The notes below the pieces were generated by a model. The model saw only the letters and a list, made by a program, of their open reading frames with translations, was not told the DNA's origin and made no database searches. A stretch of DNA of 64,000 bases from IMG/VR virus record IMGVR_UViG_3300043010_000145; one strand, given 5' to 3'. Both the position numbers and the translations under genes were made by a program. This DNA is from a virus (Duplodnaviria; Caudoviricetes). Numbering within the stretch: the stretch's first letter is position 1; each line of letters starts with the position of its first letter. Of the stretch, positions 31,047 through 54,388 are shown piece after piece.

Positions 31047-31184
31047 AAAAAGAAAAACCCCGCATCAGCATTATGCGAGGTTTTTCTAATATCTAAAAAG
31101 GTTTTTCTTGTGATTCACGCCACCACAGATTGAATGATGCGAAGGAGGAAACTTACGCATTTTACAGGAACCTTTTACCTGTTA
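31047..31184 (-). ncRNA. Candidate sRNA with an anti-Shine-Dalgarno loop
   Basis: Minus-strand promoter TTGACA-17-TACAAT (31218-31190); hairpin AUGCG-[UAAGUUUCCUCCUU]-CGCAU; terminator at 31047-31086. Confidence 0.55.
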
Positions 31185-31299
31185 ATAGTATTGTATACCT
31201 TTTCGTTTTGCCTGTCAACACATAAAACAACAGTTTCCATTAAATTTTCTACACATTCTTGTATAATATACATAGATAAACAAAGAAAGGAGCTAACCA

Positions 31300-34200
31300 T
31301 TGAACAACTTAAAGAAACTGCTTTATACAGTCATAGCTGTATCTATGTCTGTAATGTCTGCCTTACCTACAACCGTAGCAGCTACTGAAACTGAAAGTAG
31401 CTCAGACACTTCCTATGTTTATTGGGACGAAACCCGCCCGCCAACTCTCTATGGTGCTGGTGATATTAAGATTCCCGTAAACCATTTAACTGAATTCAAC
31501 CCACTAGATACTCGTTTTAGGGTATTTGCCACCGATTTTGAGGACGGAGATTTAACTCAATCCATTGCAGTAACAGGTGCAGATACCGTAGATACAACAA
31601 ATATTGGTACATATCATGTAACATACACTGTTACAGACAGTGATGGAAACACTTCAACTCTGAACAGTACGATAGAAGTTGTTGCCGAGGATGAGAATTA
31701 TTATGTGGAAAGAATTCTGTACACACTACCTTCCATGTGGAACTTGCAGAAAGCGGGTACACAGCGAGCCAACTATGGCGACAGACAAATTCTTGGTGTT
31801 ATGTTGCCACAAGGTGTAACAATGACGGTAACGCCACTTGATGTATCAGGCAATTCTTTTACCATTTCCAATCTTGGCAACGATTCAGCCTATGAAAATA
31901 GTCAAAATTTGACTTCTACCGATTCCTTGACTGTACAGAATACCCTAGGCGATTCCGTTCCATTGATTTCTACAAAGGTTTTAGGCCCTAGCGATGCCCC
32001 TACGGATTCTTCTCTGATTGGTACAACTTATAAGATAGCATTAGAATATGGCGATGATGTATTAGAATTGCCATATTACCATAACGGTGATGATGAAACA
32101 GAATTCCGCACAAACTGGAAAGCTTCTCAATATTCTTATGCTGTTGTTGAAGGGCAGAGTGTTATGGTGCTTGTACCATTCGCAGATGAGAAATGGTTAA
32201 CAGGTAAATCTTCTGACAATCGTTTTGCTACATTAGATGAGTTCTTTGAATATTATGACAAAGTACTTACTCGTATGGACGAAATTCTTGGTGTTGAGCT
32301 GAAAACAACTGACCCAGTTCAGCAGAATGTCCGTGTTCAATACCTTGTAAAAGCCAATGTGAACGGCTGGGGTTCTGCTTATTATACAAGCAGCCATGTC
32401 GGAACACATTCAGCAAGTGTTGGTTCTTTCTTCCAAGTCAACTGGGGCGGTTTGCACGAAATAGCCCACGGCTATCAAGGTTCTCTCGGACAAGGTATAA
32501 TGAACCTAGGTGAAACAAGCAACAACATATACGGGTACTATATTCAGTCAGATAAATCTATTTACCCATTTGCTGGCAGCTGGCTTGGTGATTTAGATAA
32601 GATTGAAACATCTAAAAACACGGGCAGATTGCTTGGTAAATCATTGACAGATTGCGAAGTAGATGTCCGATTATACTTCCTTATCAATTTATTTGATTCC
32701 TTTGAAGGTGCAGATACCTATGCAAAAATGAATGCTTGGTACAGACAACAGCTTGTGGACGGACGGTCTATGAACAATGTAGATGCCTATGTGGAAGCTT
32801 TGGCGGATATTTACGGTGTAAACATTACTCCTTATATGGAAGCTTGGGGTATGACAGTTTCCCAATCTCTGCAAGAAGAACTGCTCGAACGAAATCTTAC
32901 CTTGATGTCAATTGCTTATGACACATCAGATTCTTCTGCACAAATGGTACAAGACGGAACAATTCCACACAGATATTCTCTAGCTACAACAAGTGATTAT
33001 GCTACCGTAGGGGAAACAGGTTATTTAACAATTCAATTTGATACAGATACACCAGAAGATGTTATCGGTAAATTTGTAAAGATTTATGACGGAGATACCG
33101 TTGTAGCTATGCAACAGATTGAATCCGTTACAGATACTTTGACATTTTCAAATCTTCCAATTGGAACATATCAGGTAAAGCTGCCAGCAGTAGATAATTA
33201 CGAACAGAACTACGGGTATGCAACAGTTAAGCCAGATAGATATACAACCTATACTGCTACATATACACCAATGGAAGTATTACCAATCAACGATACACCA
33301 GTGTTTATGTTCTATGGTTGGTATGACACTTACGGTTTGAAATTGGCTTTCAATGATGATTATTCTCAAATGACTGTATCATTTGGACAGGCAAACATTA
33401 TTTCCAGCGACCCGTATGCAGTTGTTACATCAGCAGACGGAACGGAAAAGATGCGAGAAGCGATTGCAAGCACAACAAACGGCAATTACTTTGATTTCAA
33501 CAAAGGAACTTACACATTAGACCTTGAAGTTGGTGATGAAATCACTTTATCCTATGCAAGTCAGCACAGAATTATGGTTCGTAATGCTCTTACAAATGAG
33601 AATATTACTTCTTTGAAGCCTACAACAAAAACAACAACTTATGTTGTAACAGAAAATGGTTTAGTGCCAAAAGGTACAGACGAACAAGTTGTTATTGATG
33701 AGATTTACGAACAGACAAAAGTGTATCTGAAAAATATCATTGATACTTATAAAGCAGAAGTTACACAAGATGAATTAGAAAATCGCTACATTAACTTTAA
33801 GGAAAAAGCTAAAGTAGTTGCAGCCTACAATCAGTTGCGAGAAGAAGACCAAGAAGAATATGCCAGCTTTATTCAGCAGATTTTAAATGGTGGACTTCCT
33901 ACTGCCACATATACAGGTATTACAACTTTGGATAATACAAAAACAAGCAAATTGCCAAATTTCCTAGACTATGTTACCGTGCAAGATAACGAGGACGGAA
34001 ATTACCTTGTAAAAGCCGAAGTGAAGCAAAGTATTGATATTAAAACTCCAAAAACTTATCCAGTAATCATTACGGTATACGATTCTGACGGCAATACAGA
34101 TACGATTACATTTGACTTTGTTGTAACAGGAAAGGCAGCTTCTAAGCCTAGTACTTCTACTTCCAATTCAAGTTCTTCAACAAAGCCAAGTACAGATACA

Positions 34201-34773
34201 GAGACTTCCAACACAACTGACAATCGGGTTGAAATCAAAATCCCAGAAAAAACTGAGGACGAAGTAGAAATTACAGAGAAAGGCACTACCTTTGGAAATG
34301 GTAGTGATACAGGTGTACGTATGATGTTACATAAATTTATTCTGCCAGCTGTTACACTTGGTGTAGCTGCTGTATATGCTGCTACGAAATTGGTAAAACG
34401 AGAAGAAGATGAAGACGGTAATGTTACTTACACTATGGAAGTGAAAGTAAAAAATCCGTTTAACGAACCCGTTGATGATGAAGTAGTAGATACAAGAGCA
34501 GAGCATTCTGATGAAGAAGCCGATGCCGAACCAAAGGTAGAAGTAGAAGATAAGCCAGAAGAACAATCCGAAGCAGAGGATAAACCAGAAGCAGAGGAAG
34601 AAGTTCAGACAGAACAGCCAGAAGCAGAGGAAGAAGTTCAGGCAGAACAGCCAGAAGCAGAGACAGAACCAACAACCAAAGCCGATGAATGCGAATGCCC
34701 AACAGTTGAGCTTGTTCTGGACGAAGAAGTAAAAACAGTTATTATTCCATTAGAGGAAGAACCAAAAGAATAA
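31300..34773 (+). CDS. Surface M60/enhancin-like metallopeptidase (mucinase-like) with Ig-like domains
   Basis: Signal peptide; DFEDGDLT...GTYHVTYTVTDSDGN Ig-like domain; WGGLHEIAHGYQ...GETSNN gluzincin motif; SDTG, TM and acidic tail. Confidence 0.85.
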   Translation: MNNLKKLLYTVIAVSMSVMSALPTTVAATETESSSDTSYVYWDETRPPTLYGAGDIKIPVNHLTEFNPLDTRFRVFATDFEDGDLTQSIAVTGADTVDTTNIGTYHVTYTVTDSDGNTSTLNSTIEVVAEDENYYVERILYTLPSMWNLQKAGTQRANYGDRQILGVMLPQGVTMTVTPLDVSGNSFTISNLGNDSAYENSQNLTSTDSLTVQNTLGDSVPLISTKVLGPSDAPTDSSLIGTTYKIALEYGDDVLELPYYHNGDDETEFRTNWKASQYSYAVVEGQSVMVLVPFADEKWLTGKSSDNRFATLDEFFEYYDKVLTRMDEILGVELKTTDPVQQNVRVQYLVKANVNGWGSAYYTSSHVGTHSASVGSFFQVNWGGLHEIAHGYQGSLGQGIMNLGETSNNIYGYYIQSDKSIYPFAGSWLGDLDKIETSKNTGRLLGKSLTDCEVDVRLYFLINLFDSFEGADTYAKMNAWYRQQLVDGRSMNNVDAYVEALADIYGVNITPYMEAWGMTVSQSLQEELLERNLTLMSIAYDTSDSSAQMVQDGTIPHRYSLATTSDYATVGETGYLTIQFDTDTPEDVIGKFVKIYDGDTVVAMQQIESVTDTLTFSNLPIGTYQVKLPAVDNYEQNYGYATVKPDRYTTYTATYTPMEVLPINDTPVFMFYGWYDTYGLKLAFNDDYSQMTVSFGQANIISSDPYAVVTSADGTEKMREAIASTTNGNYFDFNKGTYTLDLEVGDEITLSYASQHRIMVRNALTNENITSLKPTTKTTTYVVTENGLVPKGTDEQVVIDEIYEQTKVYLKNIIDTYKAEVTQDELENRYINFKEKAKVVAAYNQLREEDQEEYASFIQQILNGGLPTATYTGITTLDNTKTSKLPNFLDYVTVQDNEDGNYLVKAEVKQSIDIKTPKTYPVIITVYDSDGNTDTITFDFVVTGKAASKPSTSTSNSSSSTKPSTDTETSNTTDNRVEIKIPEKTEDEVEITEKGTTFGNGSDTGVRMMLHKFILPAVTLGVAAVYAATKLVKREEDEDGNVTYTMEVKVKNPFNEPVDDEVVDTRAEHSDEEADAEPKVEVEDKPEEQSEAEDKPEAEEEVQTEQPEAEEEVQAEQPEAETEPTTKADECECPTVELVLDEEVKTVIIPLEEEPKE

Positions 34774-38358: not shown

Positions 38359-38452
38359 GTAAAACTTTTTACATATTTTGCTTGCATTCCTTTCTTTCAT
38401 TTGATATACTAACGATGTGCAGAAAAGCCATAGTTTGCTGCACCTCCTCCCT

Positions 38453-38540
38453 CCCGTCATGGTGGAATCGGCAGACACACCGGACTTAAAATCCGTTGCT
38501 CATTTCGAGCGTTCCAGTTCAAATCTGGATGACGGGACCA
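38453..38540 (+). tRNA. tRNA-Leu (anticodon TAA)
   Basis: Acceptor CCCGTCA/TGACGGG-A-CCA, anticodon loop CTTAAAA, long variable arm GCTC/GAGC, T-arm TCCAG-TTCAAAT-CTGGA. Confidence 0.95.
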
Positions 38541-40553: not shown

Positions 40554-40739
40554 ATGAAATATTTTGTAAATGTACGTATTGACGGATGCTATACGGCTGC
40601 TGTAAATGCAAAAGATATTGACGAAGCTATCGAGAAAGCACAAGAAAAATATGCAAAAAAGAATTTTGGTGAAGATGTTTATTTGCTTGATGGCTTCGAA
40701 GTGATGTCTGTGGAAGACGAAGATGGTAACGAACTCTAA
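40554..40739 (+). CDS. Small acidic protein, family member 1
   Basis: MKYFV..DG....VNA..IDEAIEKA...VEDEDGN shared with 41944 and 42137. Confidence 0.8.
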   Translation: MKYFVNVRIDGCYTAAVNAKDIDEAIEKAQEKYAKKNFGEDVYLLDGFEVMSVEDEDGNEL

Positions 40740-40843: not shown

Positions 40844-40985
40844 TTGATTTAATTGTATAGATGGGTATAATAATACTCAGAAAGAGGCAAAACAAAATAA
40901 TACATCTCGGTGCCTCTTTTAGTAGTAAAGTTCCTTTCTAAATTCATTACATTGAAAAAGTCATGATTCCCCACATGGCTTTTTC
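40844..40985 (+). ncRNA. Promoter-sRNA-terminator cassette 0
   Basis: TTGATT-16-TATAAT; stem AAAGAGGCA/TGCCTCTTT; TTCCTTTCT; terminator with ATTCCCCA loop. Confidence 0.55.
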
Positions 40986-41073
40986 TTTTGCTTGTTTCTT
41001 CTGTTTGCAAACAGTTATATCTTTTAGAAAGGAATATGTACAAGATATTATTGCTTGTACCATAATATGTAAA

Positions 41074-41274
41074 ATGAAATATAATGTGCAATATCTATTT
41101 AACGGTGAGATAGACCTTGAAGTATCCGCAAATAGCCCAGAAGAAGCCGTGCAGAAGTTCTGGAACAAATTCCCAAAAGCAACTATGGATAATCTAAGCA
41201 TTACAGAAGCAAATGAATTGAATATATGCGATAAAGACTGGAACTTCATTTGCTCCGCTGATTTTGAAGAATAA
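41074..41274 (+). CDS. Small acidic protein, family member 2; its 3' end is matched by the guide at 41757-41807
   Basis: MKYNVQYLFNGEIDLEVSANSPEEAVQK...ICDKDWNFICSADFEE. Confidence 0.8.
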   Translation: MKYNVQYLFNGEIDLEVSANSPEEAVQKFWNKFPKATMDNLSITEANELNICDKDWNFICSADFEE

Positions 41275-41462
41275 TACATTGTATTATCTTGCTCGTGCAA
41301 AGCACGAGCTTTTCTTTTGTTTTAGTATTTTAGAAAACCTTTAGATTTTCCTGAACTATTACTTAGAGAAGAAATTATACAAGGGTGATAAATTCTATCT
41401 AATTTTGATTTTATTGAACTAGTTGAATACTGTGATTAATTGTTAAAGTTTTTAACTTTTAC

Positions 41463-41490
41463 TTGCAGTTCTTCTAATTTGTGGTATACT
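41463..41490 (+). promoter_or_regulatory. Sigma-A promoter of cassette B
   Basis: TTGCAG-16-TATACT with TGTGG extension, homologous to 7690-7718. Confidence 0.75.
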
Positions 41491-41500
41491 GTATTCATAT

Positions 41501-41638
41501 AAGGAATAGCATTATATTATGGTGCTTGATTAGAAACATTTAAGTAAGCAATTTAGAACGGTGGAAAAGCATATATTATTTAAAGCTAGCTAAATGATAT
41601 ATGATGGTAAATGTGCACGTTTACTGTGATACTTCCTT
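41501..41638 (+). ncRNA. Conserved multi-stem structured RNA, copy B
   Basis: AAGGAA...TTCCTT closing stem; hairpins CATATATTATTTA-AAGCTAGC-TAAATGATATATG and GGTAAA-TGTGCACG-TTTACT. Confidence 0.75.
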
Positions 41639-41727
41639 GTAAAGCTACCAGTCAGAAAACTCGAAGGTGTGTTACAAAGTTGCGAATTTGTAACAAGGTG
41701 TACCGAGTTAAATATGGAAACGAAAGT

Positions 41728-41807
41728 GTTTGCCCCGCACGGGCGGGGATGTTTCTGTTTGCGATAAAGACTGGAATTTTATTTTATCCGCTGATTTCAA
41801 TGATTAA
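41728..41807 (+). CRISPR. Solitary type I-E-like repeat (41728-41756) followed by a guide-like segment
   Basis: GTTTGCCCCGCACGGGCGGGGATGTTTCT (29 nt); the next 51 nt match 41224-41274 at 41/51; leader-like segment at 41671-41727. Confidence 0.8.
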
Positions 41808-41826
41808 ATTGCTGCTTGGTATGGTT

Positions 41827-41856
41827 AAAAAGCTCATTTAATGAGCTTTTTCTTTT
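41827..41856 (+). terminator. Intrinsic terminator closing cassette B
   Basis: AAAAAGCTCATT-t-AATGAGCTTTTT. Confidence 0.8.
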
Positions 41857-41943
41857 TGCCTGTCTGTTTGCTTGCAAATAGCTATATCTTTTAGAAAGTG
41901 AGGTTCTGCACCAAAGTAATAATATAGGTGCAATATTCATTGT

Positions 41944-42132
41944 ATGAAATATTATGTAACTTATGTAATAGACGGAAGATTAACCGTTGAAGTGAATGCG
42001 AATAGTTTAGAAGAAGCTGTAACAAAAGCAGATTATGCCTATGATGATGCTAATCTTGGTAAAACAGAAGTTGTTGATTCGTTCTTATCTTTGATAGAAG
42101 ATGAAGATGGGAATTATTTGTTTGAGAGGTGA
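41944..42132 (+). CDS. Small acidic protein, family member 3
   Basis: MKYYVTYVIDGRLTVEVNANSLEEAV...IEDEDGN. Confidence 0.8.
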   Translation: MKYYVTYVIDGRLTVEVNANSLEEAVTKADYAYDDANLGKTEVVDSFLSLIEDEDGNYLFER

Positions 42133-42136
42133 TTGT

Positions 42137-42310
42137 GTGAAATATTCTGTAACTTATGCAGTAACGATTGATGTAGATGCAAATAGTTTAGAAGAAGCTG
42201 TATCTGCTGCTAATTTTGTCTTATATACTCAGCTTACTCCTAGTGAGTTTCTAACTTATTATTTAGCTTCCGTAGAAGATGCTAAGGGAAATTGTATTTA
42301 TGAAAGCTAG
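42137..42310 (+). CDS. Small acidic protein, family member 4
   Basis: GAGGTG RBS, GTG start; KYSVTY...VDANSLEEAV...VEDAKGN. Confidence 0.75.
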   Translation: MKYSVTYAVTIDVDANSLEEAVSAANFVLYTQLTPSEFLTYYLASVEDAKGNCIYES

Positions 42311-42478
42311 GCTTATACAGTTTATAAAATAACTTCTTGCATGAAATCTAGCTACTAATTTCTATTTATTCTCCACAAAAACTATTTTTAAAACTATTCT
42401 TAACAAAAATACTTGCAATATTCACATATTGCAAGTATAATTATATACAAAGATAATAGCAAAAGGAGATAGCAACAC

Positions 42479-43060
42479 ATGACAAACACAAAACCAACGA
42501 TTAAAGCTGAACGAACTGCCCTCTTGCACGAACTTAATCTTACCGAAGAAGAAATGAACCAAATCTGGAAAGATTGTGTTAAAAATTCTTACAAGTGCAG
42601 AGTAATCGCTGACACTGGCAGAGATTGGACAGACCTTGCCTTATCCGAAATTCGCAAGCTGCCTAACCTTGTAGAAGAAACAAAGAAATATCAGGCAGAG
42701 AAAGAACGGATTGCACGAGAAAAGCAAGAGCAGAAAGAAAAAGAAGAGCAAGAAAAAGAGTATTATAAGCACCATTTTGATGAGTTGATGCTGAAAAAGA
42801 TTGATTCCGAAGAAGAACTTACTTCTGATGAACTTTCCGAACTTGTATACGGGTATGATGTAGAAACAAATTATGATGACAACCGCCGTTGGACAAGAAC
42901 AGCACACACTATTGTAAAACTTGCAGATAGATATTTTGAAATCGAATGGGAAGAAGGCTTAACAGAATATCAAGAGAACGAATTCTTAGAGCAGCCTGTC
43001 GAAGTAGTAAAGCACGAATACCAGAAAACAATTACAGTTGTAGAATGGTTAGCAAAATAG
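42479..43060 (+). CDS. Acidic hypothetical protein (one copy of the KLADRYFxIEW domain)
   Basis: Own promoter TTGCAA...TATAAT, AAGGAG RBS; paralog of 43518. Confidence 0.85.
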   Translation: MTNTKPTIKAERTALLHELNLTEEEMNQIWKDCVKNSYKCRVIADTGRDWTDLALSEIRKLPNLVEETKKYQAEKERIAREKQEQKEKEEQEKEYYKHHFDELMLKKIDSEEELTSDELSELVYGYDVETNYDDNRRWTRTAHTIVKLADRYFEIEWEEGLTEYQENEFLEQPVEVVKHEYQKTITVVEWLAK

Positions 43061-43140
43061 CATAATATACAACTTATGCAACCTATACTCGCTTGAATAA
43101 TTCAGGCGGGTATTTTGTTTGCTTGCTATTTTATTCTATG

Positions 43141-43370
43141 TAGTTAGTAAATACTAACTAGTTTTTTATAAAAATATTCATTTTATGCTTGCAATTCATT
43201 TATATAAGAGTATACTTATAGATAGAAAGAAACAAGTAAATCTTCAACAAAGTAAAATTCAATCGTGTAATTATAATTTCAACAAACTACTTGTTTCTTT
43301 CCGTTTCATAATAATTTCCTTTCTAAAAAGCGAAAGAGCTGTGAATTCCCCACACGGCTCTTTCCTTTTT
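43141..43370 (+). ncRNA. Operator-promoter-sRNA-terminator cassette 1
   Basis: TAGTTAGTA-aa-TACTAACTA palindrome; TTGCAA-16-TATACT; stem GAAAGAAACAAGTA/TACTTGTTTCTTTC; CAT-N7-TCCTTTCT; terminator. Confidence 0.65.
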
Positions 43371-43517
43371 TTATTTTGCTATTTTCCTTAATTGCTATTC
43401 ATTCTGCTATATTCTATACAATACTATTTTTAAAAAAAATTTCTATGTAACTATTGCAATATATTCTTATTTGGTGTATATTATATATGCAGATAGCGAT
43501 AGGCTATTAAGGAGGAT

Positions 43518-44120
43518 ATGAATATGACTAATACTGAATGGAACAATTTTGAGGAAATCAATCGCTGGAATCAGCACGAAGCGGATTTGCTTAAACAAAT
43601 TGATGCTCACGAGCAACTCACTGCTGCCGAATTATCTGAACTTGTAGAAGATTGCGGTATTGAAACAACTTATGAAGAAAACAATCATTTCTACCAAACA
43701 GCTTATACCACAATTAAATTGGCAGACAGATATTTCACAATTGAGTGGCAAGAAGCATTAAGCCATGTGAATGAGAATATTTTTGAAGAACAGCCTGTTG
43801 AAGTAAAGCAGTTTGATGAAATATACTGGAAAAACTTTGAAGGAATTGCCTTGCACAAGATTGATGCAAAGGAAGAACTGGAATCAATCGAATTGAGCGA
43901 ACTTGTTTCCTTGTACGAAGTAGACCGAAGCTATGAAACAGAAGGGCATTGGTCTAATACAATTCATTCCATTGTAAAACTTGCAGACAGATATTTCTTA
44001 ATTGAATGGGACGAAGATACAACAGAATGTGGTGAAGATGAATTTGTTGCTCAGCCTATTGAAGTTTTAAAAGAAGAAGTTCAGCAAACAATTACAGTTG
44101 TGAACTGGGTTGAAAAATAA
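43518..44120 (+). CDS. Acidic hypothetical protein (two tandem copies of the KLADRYFxIEW domain)
   Basis: AAGGAGG RBS; ELSELV...KLADRYFxIEW...QPVEV occurs twice. Confidence 0.85.
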   Translation: MNMTNTEWNNFEEINRWNQHEADLLKQIDAHEQLTAAELSELVEDCGIETTYEENNHFYQTAYTTIKLADRYFTIEWQEALSHVNENIFEEQPVEVKQFDEIYWKNFEGIALHKIDAKEELESIELSELVSLYEVDRSYETEGHWSNTIHSIVKLADRYFLIEWDEDTTECGEDEFVAQPIEVLKEEVQQTITVVNWVEK

Positions 44121-44192
44121 ATTAAATACAGCATATACTCGCTTGAACAACTCAGGCGGGTATTTTTATTTGCTTGCTTTTTTATTCTATTC

Positions 44193-44397
44193 AGTTAGTA
44201 AACACTAACTATTATTTGATTAAAATATTTATTTTATGCTTGCATTTCGTAAATATAGGAGTATACTTATAATCAGAAAGAGGTACAGAAAACCTTATAA
44301 TAAAACCTTTTGCAAAAACTTCCCCTCTTTCTAATTTAGACATTATTTTTTCCTTTCTGAGAAGAAGCCGTGAATTCCCCACACGGCTTTTTCTTTG
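44193..44397 (+). ncRNA. Operator-promoter-sRNA-terminator cassette 2
   Basis: AGTTAGT-aaac-ACTAACT; TTGCAT...TATACT; stem AGAAAGAGG/CCTCTTTCT; CAT-N7-TCCTTTCT; terminator with ATTCCCCA loop. Confidence 0.65.
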
Positions 44398-44460
44398 TCA
44401 AAATTTCTATATCTAATATCAGTAATTAAACAAATAGAAATATACGGAAAGGTGAAAATT

Positions 44461-45621
44461 ATGAACTACATCTCATTATTTAGCAGTGCTGGTGTTGGCT
44501 GCTATGGTTTTCAAAAAGAAAATTATGATTGCATAGCAACAGTGGAAATGTTACCAAGACGAATGGCAATACAACGATATAACAACAAATGTAAATACGA
44601 TACTGGATATATTTGTGGAGATATAACAAAGAAAGATATTCACAACCAAATATTCGAGCAAATTAAACTTTGGAATGAGCCAGTTGATGTCGTCATTGCC
44701 ACTCCGCCATGTCAAGGTATGTCCGTAGCGAATCTAAAAAAGAAAGCAGATAAGGAACTCATTCGTAATTCATTAGTAGTTGAAGCAATTAAGCTCATTA
44801 AATCTATTCAGCCAAAATTCTTTATTTTTGAGAATGTGCCAACTTTTTTGAAAACAATCTGTACGGACACAGACCATTTAGATAAACCAATAGGGCAAGC
44901 CATAGAAGAAAATCTTGCACAAGAATATATTTATGAAGCAAGAACACTAAATTTTGTAAATTATGGCAACAATTCCAGTAGAACGAGAACTCTTGTGATA
45001 GGAGTTTCTCGTTCATATTCTACAAAAATCAAGCCAGCATCATTGTTTCCACAAGAAACAAAGGCAAAGACCGTAAGAGAAGTAATCGGGTATTTGCCAG
45101 CATTACATACTTTTGAAGAAATATCTGCAACAGACATTTATCATTCTTTCCGACCTTATGCTCCACAAATGCGAGAATGGATTTCTTGTCTAAACGAAGG
45201 TGAATCTGCTTTCGATAATGAAGATGATTTAAAGAAACCGCATAAGGTTGTAGACGGGAAGATTGTAATACATCAGCAGAAAAGCCATGATAAATATAAG
45301 CGACAATTCTGGGATAAGCCAGCTTTTTGTGTACACACAAGAATGGATACCTTATCCAGCCAGAATACAATTCACCCACAAGACGATAGAGTTTTTAGTA
45401 TAAGAGAACTAATGCTTCTAATGACCATACCCGAAGATTTTAAATGGTGCGAGCAAAGTTTGGAAGAACTCAATGCTCTGCCAGTAGAAGAAAAGAAGAA
45501 ATATTTGCGAAAAGAAGCACCTACAATTCGTAAAGCAATAGGTGAAGCTGTGCCTACAAGTATATTTCAGCAGATAGCAAGAAATATAAAAGGACAATCT
45601 AGTCTGCTACTGAATAATTAG
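44461..45621 (+). CDS. Orphan C5-cytosine DNA methyltransferase
   Basis: SLFSSAG motif I, TPPCQGMS catalytic motif, FENV, RTR, R.FSIRE, IGEAVP; GAAAGGTG RBS. Confidence 0.92.
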   Translation: MNYISLFSSAGVGCYGFQKENYDCIATVEMLPRRMAIQRYNNKCKYDTGYICGDITKKDIHNQIFEQIKLWNEPVDVVIATPPCQGMSVANLKKKADKELIRNSLVVEAIKLIKSIQPKFFIFENVPTFLKTICTDTDHLDKPIGQAIEENLAQEYIYEARTLNFVNYGNNSSRTRTLVIGVSRSYSTKIKPASLFPQETKAKTVREVIGYLPALHTFEEISATDIYHSFRPYAPQMREWISCLNEGESAFDNEDDLKKPHKVVDGKIVIHQQKSHDKYKRQFWDKPAFCVHTRMDTLSSQNTIHPQDDRVFSIRELMLLMTIPEDFKWCEQSLEELNALPVEEKKKYLRKEAPTIRKAIGEAVPTSIFQQIARNIKGQSSLLLNN

Positions 45622-45816
45622 TAAATACTAATTACTTTTATTCATAAATTTATATTTTGTGCTTGCAATTTATTTATATATGAGTATACTTATAGATAGA
45701 AAGAAGCTAGAGAAAACCTATTAAATACAACAAACTATAATATTCGCTTCTTTCCATTTAAATTACGTCATTGATTTTCAGAAAGAGCAGTGGTTGTTTA
45801 CCACTGTTTTTTCTTT
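45615..45816 (+). ncRNA. Operator-promoter-sRNA-terminator cassette 3
   Basis: TAATTAGTA-aa-TACTAATTA; TTGCAA...TATACT; stem GAAAGAAGC/GCTTCTTTC; terminator CAGTGGT/ACCACTG. Confidence 0.6.
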
Positions 45817-45837
45817 GTCTGTACTAGCCATTTTTGA

Positions 45838-46047
45838 AGTTAGTAAGTACTAACTATATTTCTACACAAATTTATATTTTATGCTTGCAATCTAAAACTA
45901 TAAGAGTATAATAATAATCAGAAAGAGGGTTCACATCTAACGAGCTATGCAAAACAAAAACATTAAATAATTAAAAAGAACCCATCTTTCATGTATATTT
46001 CATTTTGTGTCCTTTCTGAAAACACCGTGCGACTGCACGGTGTTTTC
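45838..46047 (+). ncRNA. Operator-promoter-sRNA-terminator cassette 4
   Basis: AGTTAGTA-ag-TACTAACT; TTGCAA...TATAAT; stem GAAAGAGGGTTC/GAACCCATCTTTC; CAT-N6-TCCTTTCT; terminator AAAACACCGTGC/GCACGGTGTTTT. Confidence 0.65.
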
Positions 46048-46143
46048 CATTTTCTCCTCCAATCCAAAAGATTTTCTGTTTCTATCATTATTTCTCAAAA
46101 ATATAGTATACTAATTATACACACAAGGAGGAAATTGCCCACT

Positions 46144-46551
46144 ATGGAAAATAACAACGAAGCATTACTTCACGAAGCAGAACTCGAAGCAGAAAAAGGC
46201 TTAAACGAGCAACTTCAACCTGAACCAGAAACTTTCACGGGTTTCCGTCCGGGAGCTTTCGATAACCCACCGCAACAGCCAATGCCACCACATCAGCCAC
46301 AGCCATTAGATGCAAAATTTGATGAGTTACACCGTAAACTTGATGCTTTTGAAGTGAAGCTGTCAGCCATGGAAGGTGAGGCTGCTAAAATTCACGAAGA
46401 CTTAGGTGTTATACGTGAAGAATTTGACAAACAAGATGAAGAATTATCCGTTCAGCACGATAAACTGAATTCTATCATTACTGTTGCAGTAATTGTTTTA
46501 CTTGCTACGGGATATATTGCGGGTATTCTTACTTCACAAGTTTTCTTTTAA
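46144..46551 (+). CDS. Coiled-coil protein with C-terminal membrane anchor
   Basis: AAGGAGG RBS; Pro/Gln linker, heptad region, terminal TM helix. Confidence 0.75.
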   Translation: MENNNEALLHEAELEAEKGLNEQLQPEPETFTGFRPGAFDNPPQQPMPPHQPQPLDAKFDELHRKLDAFEVKLSAMEGEAAKIHEDLGVIREEFDKQDEELSVQHDKLNSIITVAVIVLLATGYIAGILTSQVFF

Positions 46552-46651: not shown

Positions 46652-47545
46652 ATGATTGATTTAGACAAGTATTGGGAAAAACATATCAATTTTCTTTCTA
46701 ACTCTGCACATATAAATTTTTTAGCTAAAAACAAAGATTCCAGTTCTGCACCATTTAATCAGATTTTCTATAAACACGGTTTTGATGTTTCTGTTTATGC
46801 TCAAATCTTCTGGAACTATGCTAATACCACAGACAAGAATTTTCTTGAACTATTTCCAAATAAAACGGAAGAAGATATTCAAAGATTGCTTGTTGCTCTT
46901 TCGTACTTGCACGATATAGGGAAACTGGCAGAAAGCAACCAACAACTCATTTGCAACAACAAGGTAACACCTACACACCCATTTGCAAGTGTTGTTGTTC
47001 TTTCTAATCTTTCCAACATTTCTACACAAGAATTATCTGCAACCAACCTACCAAGCTGGCTTGAACTTATCTATATGCACCACGGCTGGCTGTCCGAAAA
47101 GTTTGAAGCAAGTTTGTCTGCTTATAGCCACTCTGACAAAATTTCTAACCTATTTGCTCTAAGCAAAGAAGCGGTAGAATATATTCGTACTTATTACCGA
47201 ACTTATATTGAAGATTTGCAGAATTTAGCACAAGACTTGGATTTATGGCAAGAACTTGTACTTCTTAATATTTTAATTCTCGCAGACAATATTGCTTCTA
47301 ATCTGGAACAATACAAACTTCCGACAGAGTTCCAATCCGCCACAGATTATCAGACATATCTGCAACAGCAACCAGATTATAATTTCTATGATTTTGCCTA
47401 TGTCTATCGGGTATTACACAACAGTATGGAGCAAGATACTCGTTCCATTATGCAATATTGCAAAGACAATGATATTACAAAGCTGGAAACATTGAGGAAG
47501 CTAGGGTATCAGTTTTGTGCAAAAGAGCTTGAATTAGCATTATAA
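46652..47545 (+). CDS. Stand-alone Cas3''-like HD nuclease domain protein 1
   Basis: LAK...KHGFD...YLHDIGK...HPFAS...MHHG...LADNIAS: motif order of Cas3 HD domains; no helicase part. Confidence 0.75.
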   Translation: MIDLDKYWEKHINFLSNSAHINFLAKNKDSSSAPFNQIFYKHGFDVSVYAQIFWNYANTTDKNFLELFPNKTEEDIQRLLVALSYLHDIGKLAESNQQLICNNKVTPTHPFASVVVLSNLSNISTQELSATNLPSWLELIYMHHGWLSEKFEASLSAYSHSDKISNLFALSKEAVEYIRTYYRTYIEDLQNLAQDLDLWQELVLLNILILADNIASNLEQYKLPTEFQSATDYQTYLQQQPDYNFYDFAYVYRVLHNSMEQDTRSIMQYCKDNDITKLETLRKLGYQFCAKELELAL

Positions 47546-47721
47546 AAGCAGAAAGAGTTTTCTTTCTGCTTTTCTTTTCGCTTAGCAGAAGCAAGCCTCC
47601 TCATACTTCGGAAACCTTGCTTCTGCCTGATATTAGTTATTTCTTATATTAAACTAAGGCACGAGACCTCGCTTTCTTTCATTCCATTCAAGAAACCGGA
47701 CTTCGTGCCTTGTCTTGCACC

Positions 47722-47910
47722 AGTTTTTATCTAACCGTAGTTTTTGTCTTGCCCTAGTTTTCATCTAACCGCAGTTTTTGTCTTGCCCTAGTTTTCATCT
47801 AACCGCAGTTTTTGTCTTGCCCTAGTTTTCATCTAACCGCAGTTTTTGTCTAGCCGTAGTAATTGTCTAGCCGTAGCTTTTATCTAGCCACAGTAATTGT
47901 CTAGCCATAG
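47722..47910. repeat. 34-bp (2 x 17 bp) tandem array decaying into 17-bp units
   Basis: AGTTTTCATCTAACCGC + AGTTTTTGTCTTGCCCT repeated nearly four times. Confidence 0.92.
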
Positions 47911-48041
47911 CTCCCGCATAGCCTCACCATTTTCTTGCCCTAGTTTCTTTTCAGCCACATTTCCATTTTGCCCGCTGACATTTTGCCCAATATTTAGCAA
48001 AAAACAATATGATTTGTGTAAAACTTAGAAAGGAGAACATC

Positions 48042-49124
48042 ATGAATGAAAAACTTTTCCAAGAACTCTATGCCCAAAGCCAAAGCAGTCAGCACAAAGA
48101 ATATCTTGCCAAAACATCGAGCCTTGCACCATTAGAAAGCAATGGGTACTTCTTTACTCATGCCATGGACTCAGCCATATTTGCAGATATGTTTGTCGAA
48201 GAATTTATTGCCCAATGTAAGCATTACCCAGACCTTCTTGCTTTCATTAAGGCAAATGTCAATCTTGAAGAAATTGTTGTCAGCTATGCAAAACTGCACG
48301 ACTTAGGAAAGTTAGAGAAAAAACTTCAAGCTATGTTTAAAGATAATAATAAAACAGATTCGCTTGATTCACATTCTTTTGGTTCAGCAGTTATCTGCAA
48401 CAATATTCTAAACCACAAACCAATAACACAGTTTGAATTAGAAAAATTAGAAACTTTGCCCGCATTTATTGATATTTTGAGTCTGCATCACCTACAACTT
48501 GTAGATACTTATATTACTAGAATGAGAAATTATGAAATTAATCTAGGTTCAAAAGAACCTAACCACTACATTACCAAAGAAACCGTAAAGTATCTGCAAA
48601 CCTATTTTGCCCGAGATATAGAGAATATGCGAGGGCAAGACAAATCTATTCCGCTTGTTGTTCGTATGCTTGTGTTGAATTTAGTAAAAATGGCCGATGA
48701 TTTAGCCTCGAATAAAGAAAGGTACACAGAGCAGCCGTTCAATTCAGCCAAAGTGTATGCCACTTATTATGATAAACACAAGTATGAATATGGCTATACC
48801 AATATGGCTCATACTTATAATTTGTTGTACCAATCATTAGGCAATAGGCAAGAGAGCATTTTGTATTATTGCAAGCGAAACAACATTAAAGACTTAATTC
48901 CAAAGCGAAAGCTAGGGTATGCATTTGTTCTTAGTGAAGCACAGAGCTTAATCAACTTACGGTATCAGCAAGAGAAAGATAAACAGCAGTACTTAGCGAC
49001 AATCAGCAAACAAGCTGGGACAATACAGATATTACAGAAGTATAAGCAAGATTTAGAGCAAGAGAATGCTCAGCTTAAAGCACAATTGCCTAAGCCAAAG
49101 AAGAAAAGATTCTTTTGGTTCTAA
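48042..49124 (+). CDS. Stand-alone Cas3''-like HD nuclease domain protein 2 with coiled-coil/basic tail
   Basis: LAK...THAMD...LHDLGK...HSFGS...LHH...MADDLAS; shares SIxxYCKxNxI...RKLGY with protein 1. Confidence 0.75.
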   Translation: MNEKLFQELYAQSQSSQHKEYLAKTSSLAPLESNGYFFTHAMDSAIFADMFVEEFIAQCKHYPDLLAFIKANVNLEEIVVSYAKLHDLGKLEKKLQAMFKDNNKTDSLDSHSFGSAVICNNILNHKPITQFELEKLETLPAFIDILSLHHLQLVDTYITRMRNYEINLGSKEPNHYITKETVKYLQTYFARDIENMRGQDKSIPLVVRMLVLNLVKMADDLASNKERYTEQPFNSAKVYATYYDKHKYEYGYTNMAHTYNLLYQSLGNRQESILYYCKRNNIKDLIPKRKLGYAFVLSEAQSLINLRYQQEKDKQQYLATISKQAGTIQILQKYKQDLEQENAQLKAQLPKPKKKRFFWF

Positions 49125-50350: not shown

Positions 50351-50968
50351 ATGAGCAAGAGATACTATTTAGGTGTCTTGTCTGCGGGACTATTGGCAGT
50401 AAGTCTCGGCATAACAGGCAGCCTTGCTTTTAGAACTACGACCAATTCCAAAGAGAATGTATTTCTTATCGGAGATGATTTTGGCACGGGTGATACAAGC
50501 AAGATTACTCTTACTGAACCAAGCTGGAAAGACAGCTCGGCAAATGGTGTGATTGCCAGTCAGAGTATAAAAAAAGACCCAACTGTAACCAACAATTCAG
50601 ACATTCCAGTCTATGCCTTTCTTGTTGTGGAAGAGCCTTTAATTACTTTGAATTCACAATCAACAACTTTATTCAATTATACTTTAAATGACGGTTGGGT
50701 AAAACTATCCAGCTACCAAATTCCAGACATGAAGACAACGGTATATGCTTATGCCAAGGATTCAGCTATGACCGTTCTTGCACCAACGGAAAGTGCTACA
50801 CTCTTTAATAAGATTGTAGCAGCCAGTTCTTTTGGTACAGAAACACAAGTGGCTGGAACAGAGCAGACTTTCACCGTTCGAGCTTATGTCATTCAGTCGC
50901 AAGGATTGAAAAGCACCAATCCTTATGATGTATGGGATATTGTAGAAGAACAAGGAGAAACAGCATGA
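50351..50968 (+). CDS. SipW-dependent TasA/pilin-like subunit
   Basis: Signal ending GSLAF-RTTTNSKENVFLIG (SipW-cognate pattern), KKDPTVTN motif; AGGAGG RBS. Confidence 0.8.
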   Translation: MSKRYYLGVLSAGLLAVSLGITGSLAFRTTTNSKENVFLIGDDFGTGDTSKITLTEPSWKDSSANGVIASQSIKKDPTVTNNSDIPVYAFLVVEEPLITLNSQSTTLFNYTLNDGWVKLSSYQIPDMKTTVYAYAKDSAMTVLAPTESATLFNKIVAASSFGTETQVAGTEQTFTVRAYVIQSQGLKSTNPYDVWDIVEEQGETA

Positions 50969-53628
50969 CGTTGAGAAATTATTTACGAAAGGTTGCTGTT
51001 TCCGTTTCTGTTTTGCTTTCTTCTATTCTTTCTAGTTCTTATTCCGCACCTTTACTTGTTTATGCAAAGGATTCGACAGATATTTCTTTTACGGTAAATA
51101 CTTCTTTTACAGACAGTGAAGGAAATTCCACAGATACCTATACGGGCGGAAAAGTTTATGACCGCACAACTGTTGATGAAGTTGCTTCTGTCACCAACAC
51201 GGGTGCTTCTTGCTATCTGCGAGCAAAGATAAAAACGAACAACTGGGACGATTTTGTTGAAGTTTCCTTCGGTTCTGATTGGGTTGAGAAACCTGACGGG
51301 TATTATTACTACACAAATGTTGTTGCTTCAAAGGAAACTGTAACGATTTTCGATAGTATTACTTTTGCTGACGGTATCGTGAAAGAATCTGATAAGCGGT
51401 TGTCTAAATCAATCACCTTGGGTATTTCCGTAGATGCTGTTGCAGATGCTATTGCTCCCGATTTTAATTCGGATACACCATGGAATGCTTCTCCAAGTGA
51501 AATTGTAACAAAGGAAACGAATAGCTTCTCTACGGGTATTGATTCTAATTTATGGTATGCAGTTGCGGTTGTTCTTGCTTTATTTTCTTTGCTGCTTCTT
51601 GTGTATTTGAATAAGCAAACTATTCTTTCACATTTACAGAATAAAAGCATAATTTTTATTTTGATAGTTCTGCTCGTTTTAATTGGTTCTATTAGTTTAT
51701 TTACCAAAGGAACATATTCTTATATTTTATCTACGGATAAAGTGATTGAAAGAAAAATACAATTTGCTAAGGAATCGTATGCTGCTACTCTTGAACTAGG
51801 TACAAAGTTTAATGCACATATTCCTGATACTGCAACAGAAGTTATATTTACAGATGTAGCTGCTCCGAGTGGTGCTTCTTTAATAGATGTATCTGAGGCA
51901 CAAGATAATTCTATCGTAGCTTGGTTAGCTGACACAACATTTTATGTTTCTACACAAGATTCGGCGGGTAAGATATATGCAAATAAATCTTGCAAAGATA
52001 TGTTCTACAATAAAAAATCTATTGAAACAATACAGTTTTTGAATTTTGATACGAGCAATACAACTAGTATGTTTCAAATGTTCAAGTTTTGTACGAATTT
52101 AAAAAGCATAGATTTATCTTCTTTTGATACAAGAAATGTTACGTCAATGTATTATATGTTTCAAGGTTGTAATGCTTTGAGTAATTTAGATGTTAGTGCT
52201 TTTGATACATCAAAAGTTACAAATATGGCGGGAATGTTTTCATCTTGCAGCAACTTAGAGAGTATTGATTTGTCTAATTTTGATACATCAAAGGTTACAA
52301 CTATGCAGAGTATGTTTCAATATTGTAGTAATATGAAATCATTAGATTGTAGTATGTTTGACACGAGTTCCTTGGAAAGTATATATTATATGTTCTTTGG
52401 CTGCAGTAATCTGGTCTCTTTAAATTTAAATGGATTTAACACAGAAAAAGTGGATTCTTTTGATTCATTGTTTAGGAGTTGTAGCAGTTTAGAAAAGATA
52501 GATGTATCAAGTTTTGATACGAGTAATGCTACCGGATTTGGTTCTATGTTTAGGGAATGCACATCATTAGTTAATCTCAATCTAACAAATTTTGATACAA
52601 GCAAGGCTACGGATTGTTCCTATATGTTTAGTGGTTGTTCAGCTTTAACAGAACTTGATATAACGAATTTTGATGTGAGTAATGTTACGACCTTTGATTA
52701 TATGTTCAAATCTTGTGCAAAGCTATCTAGTTTAAATTTAGAGAACTTTTATACAAGTAAAGCTACTAGTATGACTGCTATGTTTATGAATTGTAGTTCC
52801 ATAAAAGAGTTAGATGTGGAAGCCTTAGACTTGTCTAATGTAACTAATACAGATTATATGTTCCAGAATATGTCAAGTTTAACTACATTATCAATTATTG
52901 ATAGCTATAAAAGTACAAAATCTGTAACCAGTTCAAGCTATATGTTTGACGGTTGTACTTCATTGGTTGGCGGTATAAAATACAATTCCTCGAAAATTGA
53001 TATTACTTACTATAAATCTAGCGGAGGATATCTAACAGTTGCACCTTATAGCTATGCTATTAAATCAGTTGATGTATTTAGGGAACAGCTGACAGACAGC
53101 ATTACGGGTATTGTCTTTACAACAGAGGGTGCTCCATTCTGGGCAATTTGCAGCGGTTTGTCCAGAGATGATTCCGTAATTTGTTGGACAAATCAAAATA
53201 TATTGTATGTTTCTGTAACTCTTGGCTATGATGATATTTATGGTGATGCAGAAGAACATTTCATACATGCACCAACGGATATGACGGGCATGTTTAAGGA
53301 TTTGCCGAATGTTACATCAATAGACTTTACTGGTTTGATTACTGATAACACTACAAATATGAAAGATTTATTTTCAGGCAGTACTGGTTTAACAGAATTA
53401 GACCTTAGTACATTTACATTTGATAAGGTAACGAATACAAGTCGTATGTTTAAAAACTGCTCCAATTTAACAACTATTTACACTTCTTCCAATCCAAACC
53501 TTTCAGCTGTAATCAACAGCACAGATATGTTCGCTGGTTGTACTTCATTAAAAGGTGCAAAAGCTTTTGATGTAGATAAGATTGATTTCAAATACTTTAA
53601 TTTATCCTATTATCTAACACAGAAATAA
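50965..53628 (+). CDS. Pilin-like domain + two TM + BspA-like (DUF285-type) surface repeat protein
   Basis: ATGA overlap; VTNTGASCYLRAK...DGYYYY domain; FSTG + TM; many FDTSxVTxMxxMFxxCxxLxxLDLS repeats. Confidence 0.85.
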   Translation: MTLRNYLRKVAVSVSVLLSSILSSSYSAPLLVYAKDSTDISFTVNTSFTDSEGNSTDTYTGGKVYDRTTVDEVASVTNTGASCYLRAKIKTNNWDDFVEVSFGSDWVEKPDGYYYYTNVVASKETVTIFDSITFADGIVKESDKRLSKSITLGISVDAVADAIAPDFNSDTPWNASPSEIVTKETNSFSTGIDSNLWYAVAVVLALFSLLLLVYLNKQTILSHLQNKSIIFILIVLLVLIGSISLFTKGTYSYILSTDKVIERKIQFAKESYAATLELGTKFNAHIPDTATEVIFTDVAAPSGASLIDVSEAQDNSIVAWLADTTFYVSTQDSAGKIYANKSCKDMFYNKKSIETIQFLNFDTSNTTSMFQMFKFCTNLKSIDLSSFDTRNVTSMYYMFQGCNALSNLDVSAFDTSKVTNMAGMFSSCSNLESIDLSNFDTSKVTTMQSMFQYCSNMKSLDCSMFDTSSLESIYYMFFGCSNLVSLNLNGFNTEKVDSFDSLFRSCSSLEKIDVSSFDTSNATGFGSMFRECTSLVNLNLTNFDTSKATDCSYMFSGCSALTELDITNFDVSNVTTFDYMFKSCAKLSSLNLENFYTSKATSMTAMFMNCSSIKELDVEALDLSNVTNTDYMFQNMSSLTTLSIIDSYKSTKSVTSSSYMFDGCTSLVGGIKYNSSKIDITYYKSSGGYLTVAPYSYAIKSVDVFREQLTDSITGIVFTTEGAPFWAICSGLSRDDSVICWTNQNILYVSVTLGYDDIYGDAEEHFIHAPTDMTGMFKDLPNVTSIDFTGLITDNTTNMKDLFSGSTGLTELDLSTFTFDKVTNTSRMFKNCSNLTTIYTSSNPNLSAVINSTDMFAGCTSLKGAKAFDVDKIDFKYFNLSYYLTQK

Positions 53629-53773: not shown

Positions 53774-54388
53774 ATGAGCAAAAGACAACATTTAGGCATT
53801 TTGTCTGCGGGGTTACTGGCAGTAAGCCTCGGAATAACAGGCAGCCTAGCTTTTATGACCACTACCCAAGCGAAAGAGAATGTATTTCTCATAGGGGATG
53901 ACTTTGGTACTGGTGATACAAGCAAGATAACTCTCACAGAGCCAAACTGGAAAGAAAGTTTGGCACAAGATGTTGTTGCAAATCAAACACTAAAAAAAGA
54001 CCCGACTGTAACCAACAATTCGGACATACCAGTGTATGCTTTTATTGTTGTAGATGAGCCTTTGATTACAGTTGATTCAAAGACAACACCTTTATTTTCT
54101 TATTCTTTAAATTCAGGCTGGATTGCATTAGCAACAAGTGAAACTACTGACACCAAGACAACAGTATATGCTTATGCAACAAATCTAGCCATGACAACAC
54201 TCTCGCCAACTTCTAGCACAACTTTATTCGATTCCGTTACCACTGCTTCATTCCCTAGTGGTAATGCTGTGCAAGGAACAGACCAGACGATTACAGTAAA
54301 ATCTTATGTTATCCAAACACAAGGCTTGAAGAGTAATTATCCACAAGATGTTTGGCAAGTTGTTCTCGGACAAGGAGTGAATGCATGA
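53774..54388 (+). CDS. SipW-dependent TasA/pilin-like subunit, paralog 2
   Basis: N-terminus nearly identical to that of 50351. Confidence 0.8.
   Translation: MSKRQHLGILSAGLLAVSLGITGSLAFMTTTQAKENVFLIGDDFGTGDTSKITLTEPNWKESLAQDVVANQTLKKDPTVTNNSDIPVYAFIVVDEPLITVDSKTTPLFSYSLNSGWIALATSETTDTKTTVYAYATNLAMTTLSPTSSTTLFDSVTTASFPSGNAVQGTDQTITVKSYVIQTQGLKSNYPQDVWQVVLGQGVNA

Follow-up and report, generated by a model that had tools for sequence, protein, structure and literature searches.

In Streptococcus, the csRNAs form sets of sibling copies (five in S. pneumoniae) of 51–202 nucleotides (nt), most of them with two stem-loops, and the unpaired region between the stem-loops bears a CAU anti-start codon together with an anti-Shine-Dalgarno (anti-SD) sequence; the whole set is under the promoters of one regulator, as members of the CiaRH regulon, and some lie on a plasmid or show similarity to phage (Marx et al. 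2010, PMC3091779). The LhrC1–5 RNAs of Listeria monocytogenes are multicopy and partly tandem, each copy having its own promoter and terminator, and they bind the SD of their targets through CU-rich (UCCC) sites, which are found in the terminator loop as well as in a single-stranded stretch (Sievers et al. 2014, PMC4132741). Here we describe five related plus-strand units, U1 to U5, at 40.8–46.1 kb of a 64,000-nt stretch (the window) of the IMG/VR virus record IMGVR_UViG_3300043010_000145, which belongs to a giant mobile element from an animal gut, 577 kb or more in size. Predicted from sequence, these cassettes look like a real, well-defined family of paralogous, self-contained-looking small RNA (sRNA) genes. 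Our favored reading, which we hold to be about evenly balanced between right and wrong, is that they encode csRNA- and LhrC-like sibling sRNAs, paralogous and co-regulated, that block translation starts; this is a new family of an already known design, that of bacterial translation-blocking sRNAs, and not a new system.

All five units share one order of parts: a sigma-70-type promoter, an AGAAAGA transcript start, a 5'-terminal hairpin with its loop, a linker, and an intrinsic terminator. The promoters of U2–U5 combine a TTGCAA or TTGCAT -35 box, a 16-nt spacer and a TATACT or TATAAT -10 box, and U1 has TTGATT as its -35 box; seven bases separate the -10 box from AGAAAGA in each unit. The hairpin begins at the first or second transcribed base (predicted starts at about 40879, 43224, 44275, 45698 and 45920), its loop is 21–49 nt long, A-rich and G-poor, the linkers measure 23–33 nt, and the predicted RNAs are about 114–150 nt long. 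A preliminary description of this DNA had proposed five such units, and this is borne out: the joint motif TATAMT-WATANWN-AGAAAGA occurs five times in the window against 0.15 expected, with none of 100 shuffles reaching five, and a structure-descriptor scan of the window found no sixth family member.

The promoter of U1 (40844–40871, TTGATT-16-TATAAT) has no upstream palindrome and precedes a predicted RNA of about 114 nt (40879–40992) with its 5' hairpin at 40880–40920, linker at 40921–40953 including UCCUUUCU at 40932–40939, and terminator at 40954–40985 with the loop AUUCCCCA. In U2 an operator-like palindrome (43142–43159, AGTTAGTA-AA-TACTAACT, centered 73.5 bp upstream of the predicted start) is followed by the promoter (43189–43216, TTGCAA-16-TATACT) and an RNA of about 149 nt (43224–43372), in which a 14-bp 5' hairpin with a 49-nt loop (43225–43301), a linker (43302–43324; CAU at 43307–43309, UCCUUUCU at 43317–43324) and a terminator (43325–43370) succeed one another. 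U3 consists of a palindrome with one spacer base different (44193–44210), a promoter (44240–44267, TTGCAT-16-TATACT) and an RNA of about 123 nt (44275–44397; 5' hairpin 44275–44332, linker 44333–44358 with CAU at 44341–44343 and UCCUUUCU at 44351–44358, terminator 44359–44395). The gene for a C5 cytosine DNA methylase (44461–45621, plus strand) starts 64 nt after the U3 terminator, and its stop codon lies within the palindrome of U4 (45616–45633, AATTAGTAAATACTAATT). The U4 promoter (45663–45690, TTGCAA-16-TATACT) would give an RNA of about 121 nt (45698–45818) with a 5' hairpin at 45699–45754, a linker lacking an anti-SD at 45755–45779 and a terminator at 45780–45814. U5 has its palindrome at 45838–45855, its promoter at 45885–45912 (TTGCAA-16-TATAAT) and an RNA of about 137 nt (45920–46056; 5' hairpin 45921–45990, linker 45991–46017 with CAU at 46001–46003 and UCCUUUCU at 46010–46017, terminator 46018–46047), and a gene for a 135-amino-acid (aa) protein (46144–46551, plus strand) lies downstream.

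Between units the upstream and promoter segments are 69–84% identical and the terminators 56–85%, mostly well above shuffles (z 2–7), which confirms the promoter and terminator as shared parts; the loops, described earlier as variable, are identical only at the random level given by shuffles. The folds of all five RNAs beat those of shuffled sequences (z -3.7 to -6.9). The earlier claim that the 5' stem changes in sequence with its pairing kept also holds, with pairs 1–6 constant in all units (GAAAGA/UCUUUC) and both sides of pairs 7–12 varying with pairing preserved, giving six compensatory pairs; the terminator stems contain another six. Because of these compensatory pairs in the 5' stem and in the terminator, we interpret both stems as being under selection as structures. 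The terminator loops of U1–U3 are C-rich, (A)AUUCCCCA. The units sit within duplicated blocks of gene, terminator and cassette. The sequence analysis thus shows the family, its structure and covariation and, as set out below, its motif and the predicted accessibility of that motif.

The 18-bp palindrome AGTTAGTA-NN-TACTAACT is present at four units (U2–U5), with no other copy in the window, and its center is constantly 73.5 bp upstream of the predicted start. This sequence and its fixed spacing probably reflect one dedicated DNA-binding regulator.

The linkers contain the candidate antisense elements. The 8-mer TCCTTTCT is at the 3' end of the linker in U1, U2, U3 and U5 (at 40932, 43317, 44351 and 46010), and, in agreement with the preliminary description, CAT lies upstream of it by 7, 7 and 6 nt in U2, U3 and U5 respectively; in U2 and U5 this is part of TTTCAT, the complement of ATGAAA. 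We take UCCUUUCU to be the last eight bases of the Firmicute (Bacillus-type) 16S rRNA 3' tail. The 8-mer is found 17 times in the window as AGAAAGGA or TCCTTTCT against 2.4 expected, mostly as the SD of real genes, and AGAAAGGA is the favored SD sequence of the element. On a start-site matrix trained on 42 gene starts of the window, the U2, U3 and U5 linkers have complements that take ranks between 15 and 25 among these real starts and score within the top 1.4–4.5% of all 2,125 ATGs. The predicted probability that the linkers are unpaired is 0.60–0.98. The U2, U3 and U5 linkers are mutually 63–74% identical (z 1.7–2.4). This makes them look like copies that have drifted from a single anti-start ancestor, CAU and UCCUUUCU being retained, and not like swapped inserts; the earlier proposal of swappable segments directed against different starts is thus not supported.

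The similarity to the csRNAs lies in the presence of five siblings, probably under a common regulator, with two stem-loops and an unpaired anti-SD plus CAU, although here the full combination is restricted to U2, U3 and U5, with U1 having only the anti-SD and U4 neither. In contrast to the csRNAs, whose CiaR repeat NTTAAG-N5-TTTAAG lies ten bases upstream of the -10 box, the cassettes lack this repeat, and their promoters have an ordinary -35 box, with a palindrome farther upstream; a search of the window for the repeat gave 12 matches (with up to 2 mismatches) where 25 are expected, none of them in or next to a cassette. The csRNA nonamer [A/C]UCCUAAA[A/C] that follows the first stem-loop is absent from all five RNAs, the 5' hairpin differs in having a very large 21–49-nt loop and an invariant GAAAGA base, and the carrier is a giant mobile element rather than a streptococcal chromosome. 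The cassettes resemble LhrC in being multicopy and partly tandem, each with its own promoter and terminator, in having UCCUUUCU in the linker of four of five units, and in the UCCC(C) of the terminator loop, which is confined to U1–U3. They are unlike LhrC in that the first loop (loop A in LhrC, where the motif recurs) has no CU-rich motif and the extra UCCC of U3 lies in the 3' arm of a stem, in the CAU anti-start codon, and in having a different regulator and no sequence similarity. A search with Rfam 15 returned only a tRNA-Leu above the gathering threshold in the window, and matches to the cassette region at E ≤5 are noise. By this comparison the cassettes appear separate from the csRNA and LhrC families, though they would work like them.

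We infer from these features that the units are transcribed, where their RNAs begin and end, and that the RNAs pair with mRNAs and repress them. The host sigma-70-type polymerase would transcribe each unit from its strong promoter, with one dedicated regulator probably binding the shared palindrome at four of them; the hairpin at the very start of the transcript would shield the 5' end from decay, and the intrinsic terminator would end each RNA. The unpaired CU-rich stretch between the hairpins, with UCCUUUCU in four units and CAU or UUUCAU 6–7 nt upstream of it in three, would then pair with the SD and AUG regions of mRNAs and block ribosome entry, as do the streptococcal csRNAs and Listeria LhrC1–5, and the UUCCCCA terminator loop of U1–U3 may contribute to the pairing. 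The reach of the RNAs would probably be broad and not gene-specific, taking in mRNAs with a AGAAAGGA-type SD, those of the element included. As a side effect or second role, read-through of the terminators would express the methylase and the 135-aa gene, because the cassette promoters are the only ones visible for them.

Duplex scans of the linkers against all 40-nt windows of the 64-kb window and against its 45–46 gene starts are consistent with such a broad reach; the search took in these 64 kb of the element, which spans 577 kb or more, and no host genome. The linkers pair roughly equally with many starts (-14 to -20 kcal/mol) because AGAAAGGA is the usual SD of the element, and the target-specific silencing proposed earlier is not supported, with no specific target found in the window. 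In line with the preliminary description, the starts to which the U2, U3 and U5 linkers are complementary have no second copy in the window, even when three mismatches are allowed; shorter complements of 12–13 nt are present. The U5 linker has a 13-nt complement at the AUG region of the small gene that begins at 41074 (-12.2 kcal/mol, rank 20 of 45), the U1 and U2 linkers have 12–13-nt complements to a AGAAAGGAA site 40 nt before the same gene, and the two top partners of the U2 linker are two other members of the small-protein (MKY-type) family to which gene 41074 belongs. These 12–13-nt matches are AU-rich, weak and near shuffle level, other pairs with MKY-type genes are unremarkable in energy and rank, and we treat the matches as suggestive leads only. 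We rejected loop targets in the window, the best matches being within the tail of the background or inside terminators; the U3 loop has a match of 14 nt that is part of a terminator palindrome, and the best duplex of the U5 loop is irregular and G-U-rich.

Several observations weigh against a set of translation-blocking sRNAs. Of the anti-ribosome-binding-site and anti-AUG linkers in the preliminary description, three of five carry both elements and a fourth the anti-SD alone, but U4 has neither anti-SD nor CAT, and U1 has no CAT at the spacing seen in the others. There is no target above the generic SD level within the 64-kb window, and pairing is not strongest with the adjacent gene, the methylase start ranking only seventh of 46 for the U3 linker. 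Two or three of the downstream genes have no promoter of their own, which fits a cis-acting role at least equally well. In two gut metatranscriptome runs (contigs only), neither the cassettes nor the methylase are covered; the contigs contain parts of neighboring genes at low depth and, given the shortness of the RNAs and possible DNA carry-over, neither support nor refute their existence. Contigs from two runs begin at 46129 and 46131, just before the ATG at 46144, a weak hint of a start at most. Finally, no cassette relatives were found in any collection searched, nor was any close relative of the element itself. Exact-pattern scans for the promoter plus 5' motif gave no matches in viral, metagenome and species-genome collections, and a BLAST search of the region against phage and plasmid records recovered the methylase only. 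Two identical contigs (L001 and L002) add nothing, and the phage-like contigs L003–L013, which carry relatives of a neighboring 193-aa protein (the best being 51% identical), have no such cassettes.

An alternative explanation, possible in our view but on the doubtful side, is that the cassettes are mainly cis-acting leaders, in which a regulated promoter and an attenuator gate the next gene, the anti-SD masks the ribosome site of that gene, and the short RNA is a by-product. A comparable arrangement is known from lambda PR' and other phage antitermination leaders: at PR' a strong promoter gives a short 6S RNA ending at tR', and the genes that follow have no promoter of their own. The possible cis role of the cassettes, which the preliminary description had missed, arises because no promoter is visible for the methylase or the 135-aa gene besides that of the preceding cassette; both lie, as at PR', behind promoter, short RNA and terminator. 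Consensus scans of the 64 nt that separate the U3 terminator from the methylase ATG revealed nothing promoter-like, and downstream of the U5 terminator no plus-strand promoter came up before the ATG at 46144. A gene lies behind four of the five units, and in folds of the read-through transcripts an anti-SD pairs with the SD of the next gene in all four cases. In U1 this pairing comprises 13 bp with 41022–41034, in U3 16 of 18 positions are paired with the methylase start, and in U2 and U5 CU-rich stretches just 3' of the terminator pair with the next SD. The methylase start region (about 44443–44463) can pair with the U3 linker; the methylase gene runs into the U4 palindrome, and the first terminator after it is that of U4. 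The gene at 41074, behind U1, is preceded by weak promoter-like sites only (consensus scan).

Other features fit a leader poorly. U4 has no gene behind it and cannot be a gene leader, because the U5 promoter follows directly with no gene between, and at 43454 a separate, good promoter (TTGCAA-17-TATATT) serves the gene behind U2, which encodes a 200-aa protein. We found no convincing antiterminator: in RNAs cut before the 3' arm of the terminator, alternative pairing is confined to the A/U-rich base of the 5' arm, and its GC core is left free. The pairing of the linkers with the adjacent start is no better than with other starts, and it is not evident how a leader could be switched on if it ends transcription and also masks the ribosome site. 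The comparison with lambda PR' is limited in the same way, in that we identified no antiterminator gene or qut- or nut-like element, U4 stands without a gene, and the anti-SD has no counterpart there. The two roles may coexist, and at least U3 and U5 may also serve as attenuating leaders.

The preliminary description had favored a modular arsenal; in this view, a single mRNA of a host defense system or a rival element would be the specific target of every linker, and perhaps of every loop. The scaffolds are indeed retained while linkers and loops differ between units, and the neighborhood, with two orphan methylases, the tRNA-Leu and small acidic proteins, looks like a counter-defense island; the U5 complement at the AUG region of 41074 and those of U1 and U2 to the SD-like site before it could be read as guide matches. 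We nevertheless consider this unlikely. The three anti-start linkers are mutually homologous, and within the 64 kb searched the 12–13-nt matches are no better than near chance, and loop matches either do not rise above the background tail or are located in terminators. The related and broader picture, of a duplicating and re-targetable RNA toolkit with a fixed scaffold (operator, promoter, 5' hairpin and terminator) and evolving or exchanged linkers (perhaps loops) that silence host-defense or rival starts, amounting to a protein-free form of RNA-guided exclusion, strikes us as quite unlikely too.

It is improbable that the cassettes are inert by-products of duplication, that is, promoter-terminator 'insulator' modules copied along with paralogous genes and having no RNA function. 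Their location within duplicated blocks and the free drift of the loops would be expected of such modules, but compensatory changes maintain the pairing in both stems, CAU and UCCUUUCU are retained amid changing flanks, and the spacing of the operator is fixed. Least probable is that the minus-strand mini-open reading frames opened by AGAAAGGA-N6/7-ATG are the real genes in a type I toxin-antitoxin-like arrangement: these sequences score like normal translation starts of the element, but we rejected this and any small-protein reading because the frames, of 12, 43 and 4 codons and unconserved as the preliminary description had it, are mutually unrelated and not hydrophobic and because there is no good minus-strand promoter to the right of U2 or U3; moreover U1 and U4 have no such frame, and the neighboring genes are all on the plus strand.

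The genes around the cassettes give the neighborhood the look of a counter-defense or early region, with one N6 and one C5 orphan methylase. The genes at 40554–40739, 41074–41274, 41944–42132 and 42137–42310 encode four acidic paralogues, each about 60 aa long, that have an M/V-K-Y start, NANSLEEAV and EDEDGN motifs and a weak match to a PHROG family annotated 'RNA polymerase inhibitor' (E about 3e-4). A 30-nt repeat (41002–41031 and 41869–41898, 90% identical) lies just after a terminator and before two MKY-type genes (ATGs at 41074 and 41944). Neither gene has an SD at normal spacing; an AGAAAG(G) site is located 40–45 nt upstream, and a possible hairpin in the interval might bring SD and AUG together, although it folds no better than shuffles do.

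Two further paralogous proteins, of 193 aa (42479–43060) and 200 aa (43524–44120), have no Pfam family. The AlphaFold model of the 193-aa protein (pLDDT 88.8) has a helical N-terminal part and a small C-terminal beta domain; it shows no clear fold match and nothing indicating an RNA chaperone, and the beta domain has a weak local match to 7jta, a 56-residue protein with anti-Cas9 activity (E 1.2, TM 0.75 by target). Homologues of the 193- and 200-aa proteins are found in large phage-like contigs beside genes for RNA ligase, Thg1, a kinase and a methylase. The tRNA-Leu(UAA) at 38379–38540 has its own TGCTTGCAT-type promoter, a leader hairpin followed by a CU-rich run, CACCTCCTCCCTCCC, and a two-way terminator after the tRNA. 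At 31047–31218 the plus strand reads GAAGGAGGAAAC, which would put a candidate promoter-to-terminator RNA with a CCUCCUU loop on the opposite strand; the element may thus have another anti-SD sRNA, unrelated to the cassettes.

Several features relate to CRISPR systems. A solitary I-E-like CRISPR repeat at 41725–41758 occurs with many different flanks, at high depth, among both the DNA and the RNA contigs from the same samples, and therefore real arrays with this repeat are present in those samples; a search with the repeat for the host gave one chance match, in an unrelated genome. Two type I-C arrays with the repeat GTTGCACTCCATACGGAGTGCGTGGATTGAAAT flank cas3, cas5d, csd1 and cas7 just past the end of the window (contig L014, 14061–15046 and 21191–21497, corresponding to about 65.2–66.2 kb and 72.3–72.6 kb in window coordinates). 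The spacers of these arrays do not match the cassettes, and the I-C repeat is unrelated to them. About ten 17-nt iterons, arranged as 34-nt double units, lie at 47676–47940 between genes at 46652–47545 and 48009–49124 with matches to Cas3 HD domains; the iterons look like a replication origin or another protein-binding array. Elsewhere in the window are very large open reading frames of up to 2,967 aa (10957–19860, 20614–26283, 31300–34773, 50932–53628 and 54352–59820), and those scanned include Pfam DUF285, LRR, M60 peptidase and Ig-like surface domains. Such surface-domain cargo would be unusual for a phage and would fit a giant plasmid-like element.

Sibling sRNAs directed against translation start sites are well studied in Streptococcus and Listeria, and there is little on them in phages or giant elements. 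If the RNAs of U1–U5 are made, a giant mobile element or phage of the gut would run an operator-controlled set of five translation-blocking RNAs, and this set would lie inside an apparent counter-defense or early-gene region.

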